Below are positions 37,492 to 54,008 of a stretch of DNA of 64,000 bases, in pieces (position 1 is the first letter of the stretch; each line of letters begins with the position of its first letter). Under the pieces are notes generated by a model. The model was not told the DNA's origin. It saw only the letters and a program-made list of their open reading frames with translations, and searched no databases. The position numbers were made by a program, and so were the translations under genes. Source of the DNA: Acidobacteriota bacterium (GTDB lineage Bacteria; Acidobacteriota; UBA6911; RPQK01; JAJDTT01); assembly GCA_965263035.1 (NCBI GenBank), contig OZ253580.1, forward strand, positions 5,920,001 through 5,984,000. The letters run 5' to 3'.

Positions 37492-38247
37492 ATGACGACA
37501 CCGGGAATCGTCAACCAGAACCCGCCACGCTCCGCCGGCCGGTCAGCCGGGATCGGACTCCTCCCGATCCTGGGAATCCTGGCCGGGTTGACCGCGCTGA
37601 CACTCGCCGGCCTCTACCTCGACGACCGCTTCCAGACACTGGAGGAGCGGATTTCCGTGAATCGGGAATACCTTCACGCCGAGCGGGAGGAGATGAAACG
37701 TCTCAGTTCACGGTTGCTGGGCCTCAGCGGCGACTCCCAACGATTGGAGGGGGAGCTGGAAAAGGAGGACCAGAAGCTTCGGAACACCGTCAGGTCCAGT
37801 TTTCAGCAGGCTCGGAATAAAATCGAGGAAAGCCGCGGGGATATCGAGAAGCTGATTTCCGCCTTGGAGGCTCTGGCCGTCACGGTGGAACAACTGAACC
37901 AAAGCCACCAGGACGCCGTGGCTCAGTCCCAGGCTCGGCACACGGAAACAGAGAAGAATACCGAGTCGAACCGAGCAGCGGTCAGTACCGTCAGGACCAA
38001 TGTGGAGCGGATCCGGGGCCAGTTGCGAACCCACCTCGAACGGATGAACCGGCTGGGCAAGACGCTGGAGGGTCTGAGCGCTCAGGTGCAGTCCGTGGAA
38101 GAGTCCAACAAGAGCACTCTGGTGTCATTGGAATCCAATCTTCAGGCCCTCTCGGAGCGGGTCAGTCTGGCTCTCAACGACTCCCGGGCCCGCTTGGACG
38201 ACTTGACCGCCAAATTGGACCGGCTGCGCGGCCAGGAAGTGTTTTAA
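37492..38247 (+). CDS. Membrane-anchored coiled-coil hypothetical protein
   Basis: One N-terminal TM helix followed by ~200 aa of heptad-rich, helix-favouring sequence. Confidence 0.7.
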   Translation: MTTPGIVNQNPPRSAGRSAGIGLLPILGILAGLTALTLAGLYLDDRFQTLEERISVNREYLHAEREEMKRLSSRLLGLSGDSQRLEGELEKEDQKLRNTVRSSFQQARNKIEESRGDIEKLISALEALAVTVEQLNQSHQDAVAQSQARHTETEKNTESNRAAVSTVRTNVERIRGQLRTHLERMNRLGKTLEGLSAQVQSVEESNKSTLVSLESNLQALSERVSLALNDSRARLDDLTAKLDRLRGQEVF

Positions 38248-38267
38248 CGCACCGTTGTCGGCGCCCC

Positions 38268-39410
38268 TCAATCAATCGTCACCCACTCCAGGTTCTGGGC
38301 GGAACGGAGAACCGCTTCCTGGGTTTTCTGGGTGGCCAGCGCCTCCCGGAAGCTGGGATGGGTTCCCTCGCCTGATTCCAAACCCTTCAGGAAATCGGCC
38401 AAGGCGTTGATGAAGGTGTGCTCGTAGCCGATCACGCAACCCGGAACCCACCAGTTCTTCATGTAGGGGTGTTCGAAGGCGGTCACCAGGATGGTGCGCC
38501 AACCTTGGAGGTGGGACGGGTCGTCGTGATTGAAGTACCGGAGCTGGTGCATGTTCTCCAGGTCGAAGTAGAGCGAACCCTTCTCCCCGTTGATCTCGAA
38601 CGAGTTCTTGTTCTTGCGTCCGCGAGCGTAACGGGTGGCTTCGAAGGTCCCGTTGGACCCGTTGGAAAAGCGGGCCATGAAGGTGCAGACATCGTCGATC
38701 TCCACGGCCTTCCGCTCCGTCGGACTTCCCTGCACCGGGCGCTCCTTGACGAAGATCTCCGTCATCCCCGACACCGACTCGACAGGGCCGTTGAGCCAGA
38801 TTGCGGTGTCGATGCTGTGGCTCGCCAGATCTCCTGAGACGCCGGCCCCGGCGACTTCCTTTTCCAGGCGCCAGAGAGTGGGGCCTCCCAGCGGTACGTC
38901 TTCCGATATGGTCCAGTCCTGCAGGTAGGTGGACCGGTAGTGGTAGATTCGTCCCAGGCGGCCCTCATCGATCAACTGGCGGGCCAACGCGATGGCCGGA
39001 ACCCTGCGATAGTTGAACCAGACCATGTTGGCGACTCCTGCACTTTCCACGGCCTCCACCATCTCCACGGCCTCATCCACATCGATGGCCAGCGGTTTCT
39101 CGCACAGCACCATCTTTCCCCGGCTCGCGGCGGCCAGAGCGATCTCATGATGGGTGTTGTTGGGACTGCAGATGTCGATGACGTCGATGTCGTCCCGCTC
39201 CACCAGACGCCGCCAGTCGGTCTCCGTCGATTCCCAGCCCCAATTGCGGGCGAACGGCTCCAACTTGTCCGAGTTCCGGGCCGCCACTGCCTTGAGGACG
39301 CAGGTCCGGTCCAGATCGAAGAACTGGTTGACCTTCCGGTACGCGTTGGAGTGGGCTCGACCCATGAATCCGTAGCCGATCATTCCTACATTCAGCGTCT
39401 TCGTTGCCAT
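38268..39410 (-). CDS. Gfo/Idh/MocA family oxidoreductase
   Basis: GYGFMGRAHSNA, CEKPLA, FNYRRVPA, YLQDW, IGYEHTF. Confidence 0.93.
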   Translation of the reverse strand: MATKTLNVGMIGYGFMGRAHSNAYRKVNQFFDLDRTCVLKAVAARNSDKLEPFARNWGWESTETDWRRLVERDDIDVIDICSPNNTHHEIALAAASRGKMVLCEKPLAIDVDEAVEMVEAVESAGVANMVWFNYRRVPAIALARQLIDEGRLGRIYHYRSTYLQDWTISEDVPLGGPTLWRLEKEVAGAGVSGDLASHSIDTAIWLNGPVESVSGMTEIFVKERPVQGSPTERKAVEIDDVCTFMARFSNGSNGTFEATRYARGRKNKNSFEINGEKGSLYFDLENMHQLRYFNHDDPSHLQGWRTILVTAFEHPYMKNWWVPGCVIGYEHTFINALADFLKGLESGEGTHPSFREALATQKTQEAVLRSAQNLEWVTID

Positions 39411-39601
39411 GAGATTTCTCCGGATCCGCTCCGAGGCCGGCTCACCTGTCCCACCATGACCTGACGAAGCCAAGCCCTCACCCTCTGGTGCAGAGAGAGT
39501 ACGCCCGCACCGATCTGGGCCGCAAGCCCGTGGGGGGTGGCGTCACGCCCACGACGGGTGGGACAATCGGGACCGTCGCCGGCATGGGGGATATCGTGAA
39601 C

Positions 39602-40441
39602 ATGCGTGTGGGAATGAATCTGCTCCTCTGGACGACCGAAGTCGGACCGTCCCATCGAAAACTGCTGAAGCAGATTCGCGACTGGGGCTTCGACGGCGTC
39701 GAGATCCCCATTTTTTCGCCCCATCCTCAGCGCGCACGGGATCTCGGCCTGCTTCTGGACGATCTGGGACTGGAGCGCACGGCCGTCACCGTCGTTCCGC
39801 CGGACGCCAATCCCATTCACCCGGATCCATCCGTCCGGACCAAGGCCCTGGAGTACTTGAAGTCGGTGGTGGAGGCCTGCCATCTCGCCGGAATCCGTCT
39901 CCTCGCAGGCCCGCTCCACTCCCCCGTCGGTCTCCTGGCGGGCCGCAGCCGCACCCAGGAGGAATGGCGATGGGCTCTGGAAATCCTGCAACAGACGGCG
40001 GATCTGGCCCGGTCCGCGCGGATCACGCTGGCTCTGGAATTCCTGAACCGGTTCGAATCCTATTTCCTGAACTGCGCCAAGGACACCGTCGAGTTCACGG
40101 CTCAGGCCGATCGGCCCAATCTGGGGATTCTCTACGACACCTACCACGCCCATCTGGAGGAGAAGAACGTCTCCACGGCGATTCGGTCCTGTGCGGGCGC
40201 CCTTCGCCACGTCCACATCAGCGAGAACGACCGGGCGACCCCCGGCGAGGGTCAGGTCCGCTGGCAGGAGACCTTCGACACTCTCAAGGACGTCCGGTAT
40301 GCGGACTGGCTGGTCATCGAGGCCTTCGGGCAGGCGATGCCGGAACTGGCCGCCGCCACCTGCATCTGGCGGCGCATGTTCCCGTCAGAAGAGCATCTGG
40401 CGCGAAACGGACTGGAATGGATCCGCTCCAACTGGGATTGA
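39602..40441 (+). CDS. Sugar phosphate isomerase/epimerase (ketose 3-epimerase-like TIM barrel)
   Basis: GFDGVEIP, EFLNRFE, YDTYH, HVHISENDR, IEAF. Confidence 0.9.
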   Translation: MRVGMNLLLWTTEVGPSHRKLLKQIRDWGFDGVEIPIFSPHPQRARDLGLLLDDLGLERTAVTVVPPDANPIHPDPSVRTKALEYLKSVVEACHLAGIRLLAGPLHSPVGLLAGRSRTQEEWRWALEILQQTADLARSARITLALEFLNRFESYFLNCAKDTVEFTAQADRPNLGILYDTYHAHLEEKNVSTAIRSCAGALRHVHISENDRATPGEGQVRWQETFDTLKDVRYADWLVIEAFGQAMPELAAATCIWRRMFPSEEHLARNGLEWIRSNWD

Positions 40442-40457
40442 TTTCCGCCTGAAAAAC

Positions 40458-40542
40458 GTAGGGGCACCCCTTGTGGATGCCCTCTTTCGTCCGAACCTCG
40501 GTTGCCAGCCCGGACGAGGGCGACCACGAGGGTCGCCCCTAT
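40458..40542. repeat. REPIN-like doublet of inverted GTAG-type REPs
   Basis: GTAG-GGGCACCCCTTGTGGATGCCC ... GGGCGACCACGAGGGTCGCCC-CTAT. Confidence 0.8.
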
Positions 40543-40589
40543 GAGACGAAGAACCAGCATCTGCCGGCAGTGGTGTTTCGGAGAGCTCT

Positions 40590-40689
40590 CCCTATCGATC
40601 CCGGAACCGCTCGGCCGTGTCCTGCGGCTCGTAATCCCAGGTCCCGCCGAGCGTTGTCCAGAGACCGATAGTTCCACTTGTTGTCGGAG
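40590..40689 (-). pseudogene. Orphan 3' end of the NAD-dependent epimerase gene (copy of 42485-42583)
   Basis: Aligned by eye: 5 substitutions plus a 1-bp insertion; the ~55 bp next to 40689 are identical. Confidence 0.9.
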
Positions 40690-40698
40690 GACCGAATG

Positions 40699-40994
40699 AG
40701 GGGACAGTCTATTTTTCCGTGCTTGCTGGATTTGGTGGCGGGGACGGCCTGTCCCTTGGTCGGGATCGGTTCAGCCTCACCGGATGTGCGCGGCTCGAAT
40801 AGTCTCAGACGGCTCACGTCCGGATCTCCAGGAGGCTGAAAAAGGGGACAGTCTATTCTTCCGGGACGAGTTGCACCGGATGTCGGGAGAGCTGCCCGGG
40901 CCTTCCAAACCCTGCGGCGCGGCCCGCGCTCAGCCGTCAGGCACCGGCTCTTGACCCATTCAGGAGGGGAAAAAGGGGACGGTCTATTTTTCCG
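40699..40994 (+). repeat. Three spaced direct repeats AGGGGAC(A/G)GTCTATT(T/C)TTCCG
   Basis: Copies start at 40699, 40843 and 40974; copies 2 and 3 share about 40 bp. Confidence 0.85.
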
Positions 40995-41194
40995 GGACGG
41001 GAGGCACAGGGCGGACCACAAAGGTGTCGGCTCCTTCGTCTGCAAAGACAACTGAGGTGGCGACTTGGTCACGTTTCCTCGGATGCTTCCGGGAACGCGA
41101 GATTTGCTGATTTTCTTGAGTTTCCTTCGCCTTTCTCAGATCTGAATCGTTGTTGTCATCAGGGGTGCGAACCGATTCACCGAGGACAATGGCC

Positions 41195-42130
41195 ATGGCC
41201 CGAGGCGCGCGACACAAAAGCACAGAGGCCGCTTTCTATCACCTCACCAATCGAGTCGCCGGTCGGGCCGATTGGTTCCCCTTTGAAGACCGCCAAGCCC
41301 GGAGCAAACTCCTGGACATGATGTTGTTCTACGTCAATGCCTACCGGTGTCGTTTGGCCGCTTTCCAGATCATGGGTAATCACTTCCACTTCATCGTCCA
41401 TTTTGAGAAACCTCGCCCCTTGTCCCGCGAGGAATTGATGGAGAGCGCCCACAAGCTTTATGGACGAAAGGCAGAGGTGAAAACCGACGGTTGGACCGAC
41501 GCCCAGTGGGAGGCTTTCAACCAGCGTCTATTTGACGTGTCGAAACTGATGGCGAACTTGGACGGGCTCTATGCCCGGTGGATCAACCGTAAGTTCGTAC
41601 GACGAGGCCATTTTTGGAGTGATCGCTTCAAGAACCCGGAACTATTGGGAAGCGAAGCCGTCCAGGACGCCCTCCTCTACGTGGAACTCAATGCCGTCCG
41701 GGCCGGACTGGTCAAACGACCCGAGCAGTGGAAGTGGGGCTCGGCCCGTTGGAGACTCACCGGCAAGGATCAAGATCTGATACCACTGGAGGAACTGTTC
41801 CCCTCGGATCCCGGAACCGACGTGTACAGCAGTTACCGGGCTCGCTTGTACTATCGAGGAGCCGTCCCCACCCGGGAGAACCAGGCCGCGATCCCCCGGT
41901 GGATCCTCCATCAGGAGCAGCGACGTGGATTTACCCGTGCCGGAGCATTTCGCCGGCGTTTGCGATTTCTGACGGACGGATTGGCCGTCGGGCCGGCAGA
42001 GAAGGTGGCGCAACTGCTGGCGACGTATCGGCAGCAAGGTCGATATCGACGTCGCCAACACCCCATCCCTCAACTGGGCGGAGTGCTGTTTTCCCTGCGG
42101 GAGCAGCGCTCGAACGCCTTCGTCTCGTAG
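41195..42130 (+). CDS. Y1/HUH tyrosine transposase, RAYT-like (IS200/Y1_Tnp fold)
   Basis: MARGAR, YHLTNR, IMGNHFH (HUH), GHFWSDRFK, YVELNAVRAG (catalytic Tyr), WKWGS. Confidence 0.9.
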   Translation: MARGARHKSTEAAFYHLTNRVAGRADWFPFEDRQARSKLLDMMLFYVNAYRCRLAAFQIMGNHFHFIVHFEKPRPLSREELMESAHKLYGRKAEVKTDGWTDAQWEAFNQRLFDVSKLMANLDGLYARWINRKFVRRGHFWSDRFKNPELLGSEAVQDALLYVELNAVRAGLVKRPEQWKWGSARWRLTGKDQDLIPLEELFPSDPGTDVYSSYRARLYYRGAVPTRENQAAIPRWILHQEQRRGFTRAGAFRRRLRFLTDGLAVGPAEKVAQLLATYRQQGRYRRRQHPIPQLGGVLFSLREQRSNAFVS

Positions 42131-42389
42131 ACTCGCCTGATCTCCGACTGTCGATTCTGCCACTGTGGCACGGAACGACCCAGATCACTGGAACCGCCCA
42201 ATAGACTGAATTGTCCTCTTAGTGTGTGGAAAGTCCTCCGGACTTCCATCCATTTGCCATAGGTTCACTGCTCTGCTTCCGCAATCTGTTCTCGAGACTG
42301 TCCCTTTCTGTTTCTTTCTGTCCTTTCTGTCTCGGAATTCCGTCGAGACGCTCCATCCCGACCCTTCCGCGTGAAAAACCGTGAAAAAC

Positions 42390-42474
42390 GTAGGGGCACC
42401 CCTTGTGGGTGCCCTCTTTCGTCCGAACCTCAATTGCCAGCCCGGGCGAGGGCGACCACCAGGGGTGCCCCTGC
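42390..42474. repeat. Second REPIN-like doublet
   Basis: GTAG-GGGCACCCCTTGTGGGTGCCC ... GGGCGACCACCAGGGGTGCCC-CTGC; the spacer is nearly identical to that of the 40458 copy. Confidence 0.8.
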
Positions 42475-42486
42475 GAACGGTGTCCC

Positions 42487-43245
42487 CTAGCCGTCCCGGA
42501 ACCGTTCGGCCGTGTCCCGCGGCTCGTATCCCAGGTCCCGCCGAGCGTTGTCCAGAGACCGATAGTTCCACTTGTTGTCGGAGACCACGTAGTAAACCCC
42601 GAACTTCAGATCCTCGGGCGCGTCGATGCAGCGGCGGATCATCTGGGCGATGTCCGCGTGGCTGCACCAGACCGAGAAATCCCGAACCTCGTTGGGCCGG
42701 TCGTTCAAGTGGACACGGCCGATACGGAGGCAGATCATGGACAGGTCCCATTCGTCGGAGAAGAAGCGGGCCAACGTTTCACCGAACGCCTTGCTGCATC
42801 CGTAGAGGCCGTTGGGCCGAATCAGCGAGGTGTCCAGCACGTCCCAACCGGTCGCCTCCTCGTAACGTCCCTCGACCAGGGCATTGTAGGGCGCATGCTG
42901 CTCCCACTCGCTGACGGCGGCCCCGCTGCTGGCGAAGATGACCCTCTCGACACCCGCCGTCCGGGCCGCTTCGAACACGTTGTAGGTCCCGATGATGTTG
43001 TGCGGGAGCACGTCCTCCCAGGTGGGATCCCCCTGGGCCATGGCGGCCAGGTGGACGACGGTTTCCACTCCGTCGAAGGCGGGCCGGATGCCCTCCAGAT
43101 CGGCGATGTCCGCCTGCAGGCAGCGGAACCCCTCCACCGGGCGCCGGTTCAAGGCGCTCAGTTCGTACGAATCCCCCAGTTCCCGCCGGCAGACCTGCCC
43201 GATGAGTCCGCTCATCCCCGTGATCAACACTCTCTTTTTTCCCAT
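42487..43245 (-). CDS. NAD-dependent epimerase/dehydratase (uronate dehydrogenase-like)
   Basis: ITGMSGLIG, VHLAA, FASS, YGCSK, CLRIG. Confidence 0.9.
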   Translation of the reverse strand: MGKKRVLITGMSGLIGQVCRRELGDSYELSALNRRPVEGFRCLQADIADLEGIRPAFDGVETVVHLAAMAQGDPTWEDVLPHNIIGTYNVFEAARTAGVERVIFASSGAAVSEWEQHAPYNALVEGRYEEATGWDVLDTSLIRPNGLYGCSKAFGETLARFFSDEWDLSMICLRIGRVHLNDRPNEVRDFSVWCSHADIAQMIRRCIDAPEDLKFGVYYVVSDNKWNYRSLDNARRDLGYEPRDTAERFRDG

Positions 43246-43384
43246 GCCGCGATTCTACCGCAGGGCATCCCGACTCCGCTTTCCGGGTTTCCCCCGTCGG
43301 TTCTAATTTCCATATCCAGACTTTATGATGGGTTCTCGTTTCGACATTGGAGAAATCGGCATCCGGCAAATTAGGAGTGGAGAC

Positions 43385-44119
43385 ATGTTTCGAAACAAAA
43401 TTCTGGAGAGAATCAAAAGAGGCGAGAAGGCTCTGGGCCTGTTCATGTCGGACCCTTCCGAAGAACTGGTGGAAATGGCCGGGCGCATGGGGCTGGATTT
43501 CGTCGGATTCGACGGCCAACACTCGCCCCTCACCCCGGAGCGCGTCGGCACTTTGTGCACCATCGCGGACGGGTTCGACGTCACGCCCACCATGCGGGTC
43601 CCGGATGGGAACGAGAGCACGCTTCTGTCCTATCTGGACAGGGGAATCAGAGGCATCACCGTTCCCAACATCCAGACCCGGGAAGAAGCCGAACAACTGG
43701 TCAAATACACCTATTTCGCACCGCTGGGCCTGCGCAGCTCCACCAGCTACCGCATGGTCATGAACCAGGAGGGAAAGGACCGCAACACCCTCTTCCAGGA
43801 AGTCAACGCCAACCTGATGATCGTCCCCCAACTGGAGAGCGTGACTTCAATCCGGAATTTGGACGAGATCCTTCAGGTGGAGGGAATCGACTATTTCGGA
43901 GGCGGCCCCGAAGACATGGCCCAGTCCATGGGCATTCCGGGACGGCACGACGATCCCAGGGTGACCCGGATCTACCAGGAGATGGAGCAGAAAGTCCATG
44001 CCGCCGGAAAGTTCATGGCGGGAGACTACATAGAGTCGGTGAACGTCTTCTGGAACGTCAAGGGCGCGTTGGAGCAACTGCTTGAAAACCACGGCCGCCG
44101 CTCTCGCATGACCTGGTAG
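43385..44119 (+). CDS. HpcH/HpaI aldolase family protein
   Basis: FDGQHS, RVP, LDRG, QLES, GPEDMAQSMG. Confidence 0.85.
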   Translation: MFRNKILERIKRGEKALGLFMSDPSEELVEMAGRMGLDFVGFDGQHSPLTPERVGTLCTIADGFDVTPTMRVPDGNESTLLSYLDRGIRGITVPNIQTREEAEQLVKYTYFAPLGLRSSTSYRMVMNQEGKDRNTLFQEVNANLMIVPQLESVTSIRNLDEILQVEGIDYFGGGPEDMAQSMGIPGRHDDPRVTRIYQEMEQKVHAAGKFMAGDYIESVNVFWNVKGALEQLLENHGRRSRMTW

Positions 44120-44135
44120 TGAAGAGCCCCACCCC

Positions 44136-45089
44136 GTGAAGTTCGTCGTCAATCTGCCCATCGCCGGTCCTCTGGCGGCTCCCCGCAGTCTCTCGGCTCT
44201 CGCTCGAACCGCCGAGGCCCAGGGAGTCGACATCATCTCCTCCAGCGAGCGCCTGGTCCTGCCCCGCTCCGTCGAGACCCGCTACCCGTACGGCGCCACG
44301 GGCAAGTTTCCCGGCGGAACCGGCGGCCAGAAGAGCCTGGAGATGCTGATGACCCTGGCCTTTCTCTGCGGCCAGACCTCGCGGGTCCGCATCCTGACCT
44401 CGGTCCTGGTCCTGCCCTACCGGGATCCGATCCTGGCGGCCAAGATGCTGGCCACCCTGGACGTCCTCTCCCACGGCCGGCTCATCGTGGGCTGCGGCGT
44501 CGGCTGGATGCGGGAGGAGTTCGAAGCCCTGGGCCTGCCGGTCCGATTCGAGGACCGGGGCCGAGCCTCGGAAGAGTACCTGAGGGGCATGCAGGAACTC
44601 TGGTGTAGCGAGAACCCTGAGTTCAAAGGCAACCACGTCCGTTTTTCCGGGATCGAATTCCATCCCCAGCCGGTGCAGCGGCCTCATCCGCCCTTCTGGT
44701 TCGGCGGAGAGAGCACCGCGGCCCTCCGGCGCGTCGCCCGCTTCGGAGACGGATGGATGCCCATCGCCGGAAACCCGCGCCATCCGCTGGACAACGACGG
44801 GCTACTCGTCCGGGCGATTGAAAGACTGCGCCGAATGGTGGAGGCCGAAGGCCGGGATCCGGACAAGATCCACGTCCGGTTCGGCGGAGGATGGAACGAA
44901 TCCCCGCGCCGGGGCCCGGGAGGAGAGAGACTGCCCATGAGCGGCACGGTCCAGCAGGTGGCCGGAGACATCCGCCGCTATCAGGATCTGGGAGTCGACC
45001 ACATGGGAGTGGGCCTGCTGACCGATGACTTGTCCGAGAGTCTGGAACGGATCGAGCGCTTCATGACCAGTGTCGTGCCCTTGGTCTAG
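44136..45089 (+). CDS. LLM-class (F420/flavin-dependent) oxidoreductase
   Basis: YPY, TSVLVLPYRDP, LDVLSHGRL, GVGWMREEF, WFGGES, GDGW. Confidence 0.92.
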   Translation: MKFVVNLPIAGPLAAPRSLSALARTAEAQGVDIISSSERLVLPRSVETRYPYGATGKFPGGTGGQKSLEMLMTLAFLCGQTSRVRILTSVLVLPYRDPILAAKMLATLDVLSHGRLIVGCGVGWMREEFEALGLPVRFEDRGRASEEYLRGMQELWCSENPEFKGNHVRFSGIEFHPQPVQRPHPPFWFGGESTAALRRVARFGDGWMPIAGNPRHPLDNDGLLVRAIERLRRMVEAEGRDPDKIHVRFGGGWNESPRRGPGGERLPMSGTVQQVAGDIRRYQDLGVDHMGVGLLTDDLSESLERIERFMTSVVPLV

Positions 45090-46994: not shown

Positions 46995-47548
46995 CCCCAA
47001 TTTCTCATCACCGACACGAAAATCGGTTTTTTTAACCGCATTTCAGTGGTTTTCTTAGCCATATGAACTCAAGAGCTGTCCTGCCGACTCGAATGCGGTG
47101 ATGAAAACCGAAATCCGGCGATGTCCAGGGGCATTTGACTTCTCGCGGGCACTCGTGAGCGATGGTTCTCCCCCAAGAGCCGGCTCCAGCGCAGAGTCCG
47201 TCCCGCAGACTTCCAACTTGGCTTCTTCCCACCAGCGGGTTCGTGGTAACAGCGAAGCGGATGGGTTTGCACTCGGGCCAGAACCGTCCGCAACCATGCC
47301 GCGTACGGGTAGCTCTCGGAAAACGACAACCAGACCTTGCGCTTGGTGACCCGGACCTGAGCGCTGATCTTCTTGTACTCTGGCTCCGGACCCTCGAGGG
47401 GAGTCAACTCCAGCCGGGTCAGGGTGCTCTTGCCCGCCAGCGGCTTGCCCCGATCCGCCTCCAGGCGCCGGAACTCCCCCGTCAGGTCGTCCCGGTCACA
47501 CAGCACGGCCAGCAGCCGGTCCCGGCACAACTCGTCGTGGTCACACAG
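46995..47548 (-). pseudogene. IS1380-family remnant with an internal deletion
   Basis: DHDEL..D.LLAV...DRGKPLAGKSTL.RLE...YKKI is joined directly to the C-terminal AQVRVTKRKVWLSFSESYPY; possible right end TGAGAAATTGGGG near 46995. Confidence 0.7.
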
Positions 47549-47657
47549 AGAGAAGGTGACTGTCCCCTTCTCACTCTTGCGCACTCTTGCGCGCTTCCGG
47601 CGAAAAATCACACTAACCAATGTCGGGACGATCCAAACCATGAAGGGGGTACACGCC

Positions 47658-51867: not shown

Positions 51868-52860
51868 ATGGCTGCCTATCTGCGCCGCCGCCTGCTCCAG
51901 GCGGCACTGACGATCTGGGCCGTCAGCATTCTTTCGTTCGTTCTCATCGAGTTGCCGCCGGGGGATTTCGTCACCGCCTACGTGGACCGGCGCGCCTCCC
52001 AGGGAATTCCCCTGCCGCCTGAGGAAATCCAGGTCCTGAGAGTCCGCTACGGCCTGGACCAACCCGCGGCCCAGCGCTATCTGATCTGGATGGGACGGCT
52101 GCTCCGAGGCGATCTCGGCGTCTCCTGGATCCGGGGGCAGCCCGTTTCGGAGATCATCTCCGATCGCCTCTGGCTGACCATGACCGTGTCTCTGGCCGCC
52201 ATCCTGTTCACCTGGGCGGTGGCTCTGCCCCTGGGAGTCTATTCGGCCATCCGCCAATATTCCGCGGGAGACTACCTGTTCACTCTGCTCTGCTTCGCCG
52301 GCGTCGGCGTGCCCAACTTCCTGCTCGGTCTTCTGGTCATGTACCTGGGATTCGTCTGGTTCGACGCGGATGTGGGAGGGCTGCTCTCGACTCAGTACGC
52401 GGACGCCCCCTGGAACCTCGCCAAGCTCTGGGACCTGGTCAAGCATCTGCCGCTGCCGGCCCTGGTGCTGGGGGTGGGGGGAACGGCTCACATGATCCGG
52501 ATCCTCCGGGCCAATCTGCTGGATGAACTGTCCAAGCCCTACGTTCTCACCGCCCGGGCCAAGGGGCTCTCGGAGGTCCGGCTCCTCCTCAAATACCCCC
52601 TGCGCGTGGCCCTGAACCCGTTCGTCAGCACGGCCGGATACCTGCTTCCCTACCTGGTGTCGGGCAGCGTCATCGTCTCCATGGTCATGAGCCTTCCCAC
52701 CGTGGCGCCGGTGTTGTTGTCGGCCCTCATGGACCAGGATCTCTATCTGGCCGGGACCCTGGTGCTCCTCCTGGGCGTGCTCACCGTGGCGGGAACGCTG
52801 GTTTCGGATCTGCTCCTGCTCTGGATCGATCCCAGAATCCGGTTCCGGGGACAGTCATGA
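51868..52860 (+). CDS. ABC transporter permease (OppB/DppB-like)
   Basis: PPGD, GDLG, TARAKGL, DPRIR. Confidence 0.93.
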   Translation: MAAYLRRRLLQAALTIWAVSILSFVLIELPPGDFVTAYVDRRASQGIPLPPEEIQVLRVRYGLDQPAAQRYLIWMGRLLRGDLGVSWIRGQPVSEIISDRLWLTMTVSLAAILFTWAVALPLGVYSAIRQYSAGDYLFTLLCFAGVGVPNFLLGLLVMYLGFVWFDADVGGLLSTQYADAPWNLAKLWDLVKHLPLPALVLGVGGTAHMIRILRANLLDELSKPYVLTARAKGLSEVRLLLKYPLRVALNPFVSTAGYLLPYLVSGSVIVSMVMSLPTVAPVLLSALMDQDLYLAGTLVLLLGVLTVAGTLVSDLLLLWIDPRIRFRGQS

Positions 52861-54008
52861 ATTCGGAGGTCACGGGGACGGTCACGGGGACAGTCACGAA
52901 TCCGGAGCCGGACGAGCTTGGGTTCCAGCTCGAAACGGCGTCCTCCTGGCAACTGACCTGGAGACGATTCCGCCGGCACAAGCTGGCCGTCGTCTCCCTG
53001 ATCCTCCTGGGATTCCTGTACCTGGTGGTCCTGCTGGCCGATTTCGTGGCCACTGCCGACCCCAACCGAATCGATGCCAGCCGGGCCTACCTGCCCCCCC
53101 AACCCATCCACCTGAAGGACGACAGCGGATTCAACCCCCATGTGCACCCGGTGTCCGGGGAGTGGGACCACAACATTTTCCGAAAGGTCCATCGCACCGA
53201 TCCGGATCGGAGGCTCCCGGTCCGCCTGCTGGCCCGAGGCTACGAATACGACTTTCTGGGTCTGGTTCCGACCGATCTTCACCTCGTCGGCGTGGCAGGT
53301 GGAACCCGGGCCCTGGCGTTGCTGGGGACGGACGGGCTGGGGCGCGACCTCTTCTCCCGCCTGGTCCACGGCACCCGGACCTCATTGACCATCGGTCTGG
53401 TTGGAGTCGCCCTGAGCTTGGTCCTCGGGGTCGTGCTGGGGGGAATCTCCGGGTTCTACGGAGGCGCGGTCGACACCGTGATCCAGCGAATCATCGAGAT
53501 CCTTCTCTCCATCCCCACCATTCCCCTGTGGCTGGGTCTGGCCGCCGCCATGCCCCGGGATTGGGGAGTGCTCCGCGTCTATTTCATCCTCACCGTCATC
53601 CTGTCGCTCATCGGATGGACCCGCCTGGGCCGGGAGGTCCGCGGCCTTTTCCTGGTGCTCCGGCAGGAAGACTACGTCCTGGCCGCCGAATTGATGGGCG
53701 CCAGCCGGGCCTCCATCATCCGGCGCCACCTGGTGCCCGCCATCAGCAGTCACGTCATCGCCACCGCAACCCTGGCGCTCCCGGCGATGATCATCGCCGA
53801 GACCTCCCTCAGCTTTCTGGGACTGGGCCTTCGTCCGCCGGCCATCAGCTGGGGAATCCTGCTGCAGGGAGCCCAGCAGGTACAGGTCCTGGCGCTGAGA
53901 CCCTGGTTGCTGGCTCCCGCGGCTCCGGTCATCGTGGCCATCCTGGCCTTCAATTTCGTGGGAGACGGCCTTCGTGACGCCGCGGACCCCTACGCCCGGA
54001 GAACCTGA
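52857..54008 (+). CDS. ABC transporter permease (OppC/DppC-like)
   Basis: LGTDGLGRD, ETSLSFLGLG, SWG, GDGLRDAADP. Confidence 0.93.
   Translation: MNSEVTGTVTGTVTNPEPDELGFQLETASSWQLTWRRFRRHKLAVVSLILLGFLYLVVLLADFVATADPNRIDASRAYLPPQPIHLKDDSGFNPHVHPVSGEWDHNIFRKVHRTDPDRRLPVRLLARGYEYDFLGLVPTDLHLVGVAGGTRALALLGTDGLGRDLFSRLVHGTRTSLTIGLVGVALSLVLGVVLGGISGFYGGAVDTVIQRIIEILLSIPTIPLWLGLAAAMPRDWGVLRVYFILTVILSLIGWTRLGREVRGLFLVLRQEDYVLAAELMGASRASIIRRHLVPAISSHVIATATLALPAMIIAETSLSFLGLGLRPPAISWGILLQGAQQVQVLALRPWLLAPAAPVIVAILAFNFVGDGLRDAADPYARRT

Follow-up and report, generated by a model that had tools for sequence, protein, structure and literature searches.

A gene for a Y1/HUH tyrosine transposase lies in the 64,000-nt stretch of Acidobacteriota DNA analysed here (contig OZ253580.1, positions 5,920,001 to 5,984,000; hereafter the window), and together with the short inward-facing motifs around it this locus is probably one copy of a ~1.4–2.0-kb transposon of the 'TIRtron' type. 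The architecture of gene and motifs is conserved over 64 copies in the genus, empty sites exist, and the same neighbourhoods have been hit independently more than once, in both orientations; in addition, a subset of the copies is flanked by long direct duplications. Coordinates are positions in the window unless genome (G000) positions are stated, and the locus was read over 40300–42700.

The element proper spans 1675 bp between two duplicated segments (40690–42364, plus strand) and consists of a motif array, a 5′ leader, the Y1 gene (41195–42130, plus strand, 311 aa; Pfam Y1_Tnp, E 6.5e-9), a 3′ region and an inverted end motif. The array is built of three direct copies of a 42-nt unit, all on the plus strand and respectively 67, 100 and 86% identical to the middle copy: copy 1 (40694–40735, core 40700–40709) is the outermost, 10 nt from the junction; copy 2 occupies 40838–40879 (core 40844–40853); and copy 3 (40969–41010, core 40975–40984, with one A>G change) is gene-proximal, ~220 nt before the start codon, a position class common to the other three genomic copies and to most of the 64 genus copies. 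Both the three direct repeats upstream of the gene and their start-to-start spacing of 144 and 131 nt, which the original prediction had reported from the letters alone, were recovered by a repeat search; the 14-mer GGGGACRGTCTATT, allowing at most one mismatch, occurs three times in the window against 0.02 expected by chance, and three occurrences were reached in none of 100 shuffles.

The left junction from which that prediction measured is real, being the end of the duplicated block 40443–40689/42365–42583: the flanking duplication ends at 40689 (40634–40689 is 100% identical to 42528–42583), the first core starts at 40700, and all three motif copies fall within the duplication-bounded element. 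Contigs assembled from public runs (two DNA-type and two RNA-library runs) bridge this junction, from 40654/40660 to 41003–41129, and confirm both junction and array, with zero differences in two runs; the RNA-library contigs also cover the array, a coverage which DNA carry-over could produce and which does not demonstrate transcription. Joints in some contigs that skip from 40864 to 41100 and from 40719 to 41100 were considered as excision products and rejected, as they derive from a paralogous copy.

Two inverted copies had been predicted downstream of the gene, and one stands as described: the downstream-end motif (42295–42308, minus strand, inverted core AGACTGTCCCTTTC) has 13-nt inverted arms of 92% identity, 40842–40854 pairing with 42295–42307. 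The other, a degenerate version of the upstream motif that is inverted and carries a 5-nt insertion, lies at ~42190–42211 (minus strand) and not at 42200–42220; it is a conserved internal feature 60–80 nt past the stop codon, kept in three of the four genomic element copies and partly in the fourth. An Rfam scan of 38000–45000 at E up to 1 matched zero families, and a promoter scan of 40400–42600 found no sigma-70-like promoter, its two terminator-like matches being the GTAG-footed hairpins described below.

Motif ends recur over 64 copies

The 64 copies analysed comprise the 4 in this genome (6.2 Mb, one contig; ~90% amino acid identity) and 60 that were fetched, each with 800-bp flanks. Each of the eight other genus genomes has 3–12 gene matches, and a match of some kind was found in 29 of 41 related genomes, a tally that includes the unpublished G016, on which no conclusion rests. 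Both ends share the core GGGGACAG(TC). At the upstream end, one to several direct copies of ..AAGGGGACAGTCTRTTTTTCC.. lie ~110–330 nt ahead of the start codon (consensus aAgAAGGGGACAGTCTgTTTTtCcgg, from 93 sites), and at the downstream end inverted copies of ..GAAAGGGACAGTCTCGATTCC.. lie +156 to +320 nt past the stop codon (consensus gAAAGGGACAGTCtCGATT.ccg, from 114 sites). The inward-facing arrangement recurs over the 64 copies, often with 2–6 motifs per end; since most copies have one to six '+' upstream motifs and one to six inverted downstream motifs, the three-copy array in the window is ordinary for the family.

The idea that the flanking motifs act as hairpins was largely rejected. Folded as single-stranded DNA (ssDNA), the upstream class has a mean free energy (ΔG) of −3.5 kcal/mol versus −3.0 for mononucleotide shuffles and the downstream class −4.3 versus −4.0, and in the window array only copy 3 folds, with 7-bp complementary arms GGAAAAA/TTTTTCC (ΔG −4.2, z −1.72); the 5′ and 3′ arms of copy 1 are not complementary and form no hairpin (z +1.49), and copy 2 has a z of +0.99. 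The cis site is a mostly linear, weakly palindromic motif and not a GTAG-type repetitive extragenic palindrome (REP). A non-GTAG, mostly non-palindromic site, as originally proposed, is thus borne out by the near-shuffle folding of the 93 and 114 sites, but it is not new, a site of this type having been published in 2013. Likewise, the GGGAC-N5-GTCCC palindrome noted in spacer 1 is present (40741–40755, plus strand, ΔG −4.7 kcal/mol) but folds no better than shuffles (z −0.52).

Motif search in the flanks of homologues recovered the motif beyond the 64 genus copies too: nine of ten homologues at 42–58% identity have GGGGACAG or GGGGACAC 100–275 nt upstream, eight of the same ten also have an inverted downstream repeat holding or overlapping the core, and in a second sample of such homologues the upstream core was found in 8 of 16.

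The transposase is RAYT-like and under purifying selection

The HUH motif (H63-F-H65) and the catalytic tyrosine (Y162) are invariant in all 28 aligned homologues, whose identity reaches down to 52%, and conservation in this alignment spans the full protein length, including the C-terminal ~120 aa. The suggested affinity to REP-associated tyrosine transposases (RAYTs) holds. In the AlphaFold2 model (pLDDT 80.6, pTM 0.82) the best Foldseek match is 4er8_A, the Escherichia coli REP-associated transposase bound to a REP hairpin (E 1.7e-6), with the TnpA proteins of IS200 and IS608 next; and residues 6–181 align to profile positions 3–145 of 146 in NCBIfam REP_Tyr_transpos (NF047646), though the score of 53.1 bits is under the curated cut-off of 80. 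Of 2432 candidates from a search of a 5.8-billion-protein collection, 558 proteins reached E ≤ 0.001; some carry the name 'REP element-mobilizing transposase RayT' in one source.

No C-terminal helix-turn-helix (HTH) domain (Bac_DnaA_C, HTH_23 or HTH_28) was detected in any of the 28 homologues by hmmscan at E up to 1; an ESM atlas look-up with residues 186–311 returned no named family (best score 0.89, unnamed clusters), and a Protein Data Bank sequence search gave chance-level matches only (E 0.13). A plasmid collection held no close relative, the best of 15 records being 29.6% identical over 57% of the protein. Among the 64 copies, 58 have intact open reading frames (ORFs), and the median ratio of nonsynonymous to synonymous substitution rates (dN/dS) over 60 random pairs is 0.30; the gene is under purifying selection.

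Motif counts follow the gene lineage

In this genome GGGGACAGTC occurs 102 times and the 12-mer AAGGGGACAGTC 51 times, versus 0 for the reversed pattern of the 12-mer. Over 41 genomes the 12-mer counts are 22–104 in the nine genus genomes, 57 in G023, which is a genome of another family carrying 81%-identical genes, and 0–11 in the other 31, with 0–2 for the reversed control. Gene lineage and motif abundance track each other, and this is the co-distribution expected if enzyme lineage and motif belong together; the genome-wide count that had been suggested is far above background only where close homologues exist.

A census in this genome, based on gene calls from a crude caller (4624 genes, 87% coding), yielded 89 sites with the purine-rich family prefix, of which 78 are outside predicted genes. 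About half (46 of 89) form a near-palindromic class, GAGAAGG-GGACAGTCA-CCTTCTC, exemplified in the window at 47558 (ΔG −8.9 kcal/mol, z −2.0); this class clusters in accessory regions, with one orientation per cluster and with toxin-antitoxin genes, insertion sequences (IS) and a XerC-like recombinase present. The solitary hairpin-type motifs, 46 of which make up this sub-class, probably serve the same enzyme as non-autonomous sites. Another group of GGGGACAGTC matches belongs to an unrelated GGAGG/GTAGG-footed REP hairpin family.

Empty sites and recurrent insertion

The junction between the two genes that flank the element in the window, encoding a sugar isomerase-like TIM barrel and an epimerase, is occupied in seven of the nine genus genomes (oriented as in the window in four, inverted in three) and empty in two; in one empty-site relative the two stop codons overlap at CTAG. 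Another genomic copy, copy B, lies in a neighbourhood that is a single-copy empty site in two relatives, while a third relative holds an independent insertion ~240 bp from the copy B site, in the opposite orientation and accompanied by a separate 196-bp duplication. At a different locus, one 96-nt stretch of flank is upstream of the element in one genome and downstream of it in three others. These two cases argue for recurrent insertion rather than conversion alone. Genus-wide, 57 of the 64 copies have flanks in common with copies from other genomes and fall into 11 groups, of which four contain both orientations, and in a maximum-likelihood tree of the 64 coding sequences (CDSs) the copies group by genome and not by locus, with some within-genome pairs identical or near-identical.

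As a separate observation, the 'empty' TIM/epimerase site of one relative (L039 in G004) holds a 139-bp insertion with ~20-nt inverted ends and CTAG on both sides, which suggests a separate small element also using the overlapping stop codons.

Long direct duplications flank a subset of copies

Direct duplications of 82–264 bp, at 70–98% identity, flank 18 of the 64 copies, where a duplication is defined as a same-strand repeat of at least 80 bp between the two 800-bp flanks and junctions are the ends of BLAST alignments and so approximate. At random positions with the same geometry only 1 of 300 was duplicated, an enrichment of 28% versus 0.3%. None of the 18 duplicated segments holds a motif, and all lie just outside the outermost motifs, with gaps of 8–171 nt upstream and 5–245 nt downstream and 1364–2024 bp enclosed. 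Copy B has a 205-bp direct repeat of 95% identity that is single-copy in the empty sites, and a further genomic copy, copy C, a 235-bp repeat of 96% identity.

The window copy has a ~240-bp duplication (40443–40689/42365–42583), which as one gapped alignment is 240 bp at 78% identity and in pieces is 92%, 89% and 100% identical with a 37-bp indel; the repeat search returned blocks of 92%, 100%, 89% and 93%. Its left copy (40443–40689) contains a pair of GTAG-type REP hairpins (40457–40545) and the final ~100 nt of the epimerase gene as a dead copy (40590–40689), and its right copy (42365–42583) a GTAG REP hairpin pair (42389–42475) followed by the true epimerase 3′ end. On the left lies the xylose-isomerase-like TIM-barrel gene (39488–40441, plus strand; Pfam AP_endonuc_2, E 8e-40), convergent with the gene for the NAD-dependent epimerase/dehydratase on the right (42487–43245, minus strand; Pfam Epimerase, E 2.7e-21), which the duplication leaves intact. 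In the cases inspected, the duplicated segment is the 3′ end of a member of a convergent gene pair, and therefore one intact gene copy survives.

Because the GTAG REP pairs lie inside the duplicated block, they belong to the target and not to the element. These GTAG-footed pairs (40457–40545 and 42389–42475) are REPIN-like members of a dispersed family, with ~30 BLAST matches in this genome; a search with the 990-bp left flank that holds the pair gave 7–51 matches per genus genome. Read on the minus strand, the first GTAG hairpin with its T-run looks like an intrinsic terminator for the epimerase gene. Two other Y1_Tnp genes, near 3,478,135 and 2,482,924, have GTAGG-footed hairpins nearby and may be the cognate RAYTs of these REPs.

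Literature searches that combined target-site duplication with tyrosine transposase, IS200, RAYT or HUH returned no description of long duplications. The Replitron paper was considered as a precedent and set aside, the portion of it consulted describing something different. In the literature searched, the long-duplication signature is thus unreported, and the element is otherwise of the class described in 2013.

Comparison with known systems

Di Nocera, De Gregorio & Rocco (2013) introduced the name 'TIRtrons' for RAYT-like genes that have terminal inverted repeats, in place of REPs, on both sides, and 'TIRYTs' for the proteins encoded; GGGGWSAS is common to many of these repeats, some occur in clusters, some make up families of genomic repeats, and an acidobacterial group is singled out (PMC3733652). 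The element described here likewise has a RAYT-like Y1 gene with inverted non-GTAG repeats that are clustered at times and form moderately abundant families, its core GGGGACAG fits the TIRYT signature exactly, and the related loci are likewise from Acidobacteriota. The passages of that paper on TIRtrons carry no mention of long target duplications, distinct end classes, same-locus reinsertion or gene-motif co-transfer. A full-text search for TIRYT or TIRtron found only two comparative works and none on cleavage, binding or transposition.

Quentin et al. (2018) place 20 of 26 TIRYTs in TnpAY1 subclass 2.1, whose members have NH[YF]H and YIELNP motifs, carry an HTH-like domain at the C-terminus, lack REPs and average 1.9 copies (PMC6006769). 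The subclass is identical with Group 1 in Bertels et al. (2017), which among RAYT groups is the most IS-like, and domesticated RAYTs are present in about one copy per genome (PMC5581495). The NH[YF]H motif (NHFH in the window protein and present in most of the 28 homologues), the lack of REP hairpins and a long Y1 protein are shared with subclass 2.1. The W motif, given for the subclass as W[EQ] or FQ, reads GHFW plus S, A or G throughout the 28 homologues; the tyrosine motif, given as YIELNP or Y[IV]HLNP, is here YVELNA, identical at four of the six positions of YIELNP and with the final P replaced by A; the HTH-like domain was not detected at the hmmscan threshold stated above; and 3–12 matches per relative genome contrast with the mean of 1.9 copies. 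Given NHFH and YVELNA but W-S and no detectable HTH, we file the element as a TIRtron/TIRYT, not securely in subclass 2.1.

The E. coli REPtron (4er8) resembles the element in protein fold and in having cognate short repeats that are inverted around the gene and also dispersed in intergenic DNA, but canonical RAYTs pair a roughly single-copy gene with GTAG-footed hairpins, while here the own site is non-GTAG and the gene is present in 4 copies (3–12 matches in relatives). Elements of the IS200/IS605 group (IS608, ISDra2) have subterminal hairpins on one strand, near-identical copies and enzymes of ~150 aa. The Y1/HUH core is held in common with them and the ssDNA chemistry is presumed to be; the differences are the 311-aa length, YVELN versus Y---Q, copies at ~90% amino acid identity, inverted ends and the long duplications, which IS200/IS605 enzymes are not known to make. 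TnpAY1 class 3 of Acidobacteria and Planctomycetes, as described in excerpts of PMC6006769, is similar in its occurrence in Acidobacteria, in being multi-copy in some genomes and in its mixture of IS-like and REPtron-like traits, but it has a Y----Q tyrosine motif and a CnGA-footed hairpin in place of Y-V-E-L-N and the core GGGGACAG.

A possible transposition route and its alternatives

The following route is proposed for the movement of DNA by this enzyme. The Y1 enzyme would nick ssDNA at or beside the core and form a 5′-phosphotyrosine link. As the ends are inverted, the cores lie on opposite strands, and the two target joinings would therefore also be on opposite strands, perhaps ~100–250 nt apart in DNA that is transiently single-stranded at a replication fork or in a zone of convergent transcription. 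Fill-in synthesis would then duplicate the target DNA between the joinings. Since the examined insertions land in the 3′ ends of convergent genes, such a duplication would rebuild an intact gene on one side, and the direct repeats could later allow the element to be deleted by homologous recombination. This Y1/HUH family may thus transpose by an HUH route not described before, with joinings 80–260 nt apart, duplications tens of times the classical length, regeneration of the invaded gene and the possibility of clean loss ('harmless and reversible'), and it may have seeded the 50–100 solitary core-bearing hairpins of accessory regions, at least one of which may sit at a rearrangement breakpoint; judged from sequence comparison, we offer this as a possible but doubtful account.

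Several observations weigh against the transposon reading as a whole, with its inferred route. No duplication of at least 80 bp is present in the 800-bp flanks of 46 of the 64 copies, and none was found in 16 more distant homologues at a threshold of 40 bp; it is therefore possible that the duplications are restricted to a lineage, do not last long or are not made directly by the transposase. The window duplication itself is old or composite (blocks of 100, 92 and 89% with the 37-bp indel), and two relatives whose element occupies this locus in the window's orientation lack it. The flanks shared by 57 of the 64 copies fit long residence with gene conversion as well, the within-genome identity (~90% at the amino acid level here) is below that of typical active insertion sequences, and the C-terminal HTH of most published TIRYTs was not detected among the 28 homologues.

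The chief rival for the duplication step is an origin of the duplications outside the transposase, by Campbell-type integration of a circle carrying adjacent DNA or by later rearrangement or allelic recombination, with selection keeping the gene-sparing events; we regard it as conceivable, though tentatively. The mosaic window duplication, its absence from the same-orientation relatives at the TIM/epimerase locus, the four-fold variation in length (82–264 bp), the lack of any case in the 16 distant homologues and the fact that IS200/IS605 enzymes are not known to make duplications all speak for such an origin. It sits less well with the enrichment over random positions, or with duplicated segments that always abut the outermost motifs and never hold one; the local sequence that is duplicated differs from locus to locus, which means that the homology cannot already reside in the element, and a ~200-bp duplication accompanies each of the two independent insertions of one neighbourhood. 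Were the duplications not made by the enzyme, the element would be an ordinary member of the class described in 2013; were they enzyme-made, they would represent a new transposition outcome for HUH enzymes and would explain cost-free residence in gene ends.

The chief rival to the reading as a whole dispenses with unit transposition: the genes would form a domesticated, vertically inherited RAYT-like system of fixed-locus residents homogenised by gene conversion, with the motif as a REP/REPIN equivalent serving the host. The 11 shared-flank groups across species agree with this, as do one five-genome locus where flank identity (88–93%) exceeds CDS identity (82–88%), the clustering of copies by genome that gene conversion would yield, the purifying selection (dN/dS 0.30), the dispersal of the motif mostly outside predicted genes (78 of 89 family-like sites) and the lack of close plasmid relatives (29.6% identity for the best of 15 records). 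We nevertheless consider it unlikely, because there are single-copy empty sites, two insertions at one neighbourhood that differ in junction, orientation and duplication, junction positions that differ at another locus, both orientations within four shared-flank groups, identical or near-identical pairs within genomes, and an 81%-identical gene with 57 motif copies in a genome of another family; 3–12 matches per genome also exceed the ~1 reported for domesticated RAYTs in the excerpted passages of PMC5581495. Highly improbable, finally, is a purely regulatory motif, that is, an operator or promoter of the Y1 gene or a transcribed RNA hairpin in place of a DNA-processing site: the constrained distance (−110 to −330) and fixed orientation of the gene-proximal copy and the coverage of the array by RNA-library contigs, with DNA carry-over possible, could be read in this way, but nearly every gene copy is followed downstream by an inverted motif, solitary copies occur in all four arrangements of neighbouring genes, no sigma-70-like promoter (40400–42600) or Rfam family (38000–45000) was found, and the pairing potential at the gene-flanking sites is weak.

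If the proposed route were true, a 'harmless and reversible' strategy would explain decades-long puzzles over the persistence of RAYT-like genes. Many diverged and mostly intact copies are available in this genus, their ends are clear, empty sites are known and insertion leaves a signature that can be measured; with a defined protein and defined 25-nt sites at hand, the mechanism is open to direct testing.

Spacers of the upstream array

The unique spacers of the array had been proposed to be captured DNA or scars of repeated insertion. Neither spacer has a further match within this genome, and spacer 1 has none in the eight other genus genomes. Spacer 2 (40865–40968) matches the same locus in two of these eight (94% over 78 nt and 84% over 104 nt), motif copy 2 together with spacer 2 being orthologous to a motif plus spacer at one relative's locus. 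In two relatives a 386-aa enolase-superfamily gene (MR_MLE domains) lies between the distal and proximal motif copies; in the window this gene is lost and its leader is kept, ending in AGGAGG directly before motif copy 3. Spacer 2, being orthologous and retaining a gene leader, is thus a remnant and not captured DNA, and the capture idea is not upheld. The array may still consist of scars of repeated insertion, which is possible; some copies have a downstream-type motif just upstream of an upstream-type motif, and the arrays in G023 are partly tandem duplications of 140–337-bp units.

The enolase-superfamily gene, of the mandelate racemase/muconate lactonizing type, lies at 2562–3722 of L034 in G006 and at the same place in G007; it may have come as a passenger with the element or have resided there before it.

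Solitary motifs and other repeats

In this genome the palindromic-class motifs form clusters of 6–13 at G000 2,278,000–2,311,000, 4,263,000–4,272,000 and 5,548,000–5,559,000, lying between toxin-antitoxin, IS transposase and miscellaneous enzyme genes, the third with a XerC/D-like recombinase. Many of these motifs are preceded ~12 nt upstream by a partial half-site, and the clustered units are only ~23–40 nt long, with no wider conservation. The same-orientation clusters were considered as integrons, an idea rejected because the recombinase (G000 5547290–5548480) scores 53 bits on TIGR02249, whose cut-off is 265; it is XerC/D-like, yet also under the XerC/D cut-offs. A promoter or terminator role of the solitary motifs was rejected as well, since they show all four neighbouring-gene arrangements.

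Elsewhere, ~50 of the 57 12-mers of G023 (genome 3.4 Mb) fall in a ~70-kb region with one Y1 gene (contig 1, 1,420,000–1,490,000; L113–L115), which includes non-coding arrays of 12–17 motifs over 1.5–2.2 kb, in part composed of the tandem units mentioned above. G029, which gave no Y1 match with the window query, has 11 copies of the 12-mer, eight of them as four inward-facing pairs 53–73 bp apart that resemble gene-less doublets.

Within the window, a near-perfect 23-nt palindromic motif variant (47543–47575, minus strand) adjoins the truncation point of an IS1380-like (DDE_Tnp_1_4) transposase copy; the IS1380-like homology ends at 47542 and other repeats start at 47595, and the motif may mark a rearrangement breakpoint. 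At 52847–52895, three tandem units of GGGGAC(A/G)GTCAC fall within predicted ORFs, one ORF per strand; this is probably a coding repeat unrelated to the element.

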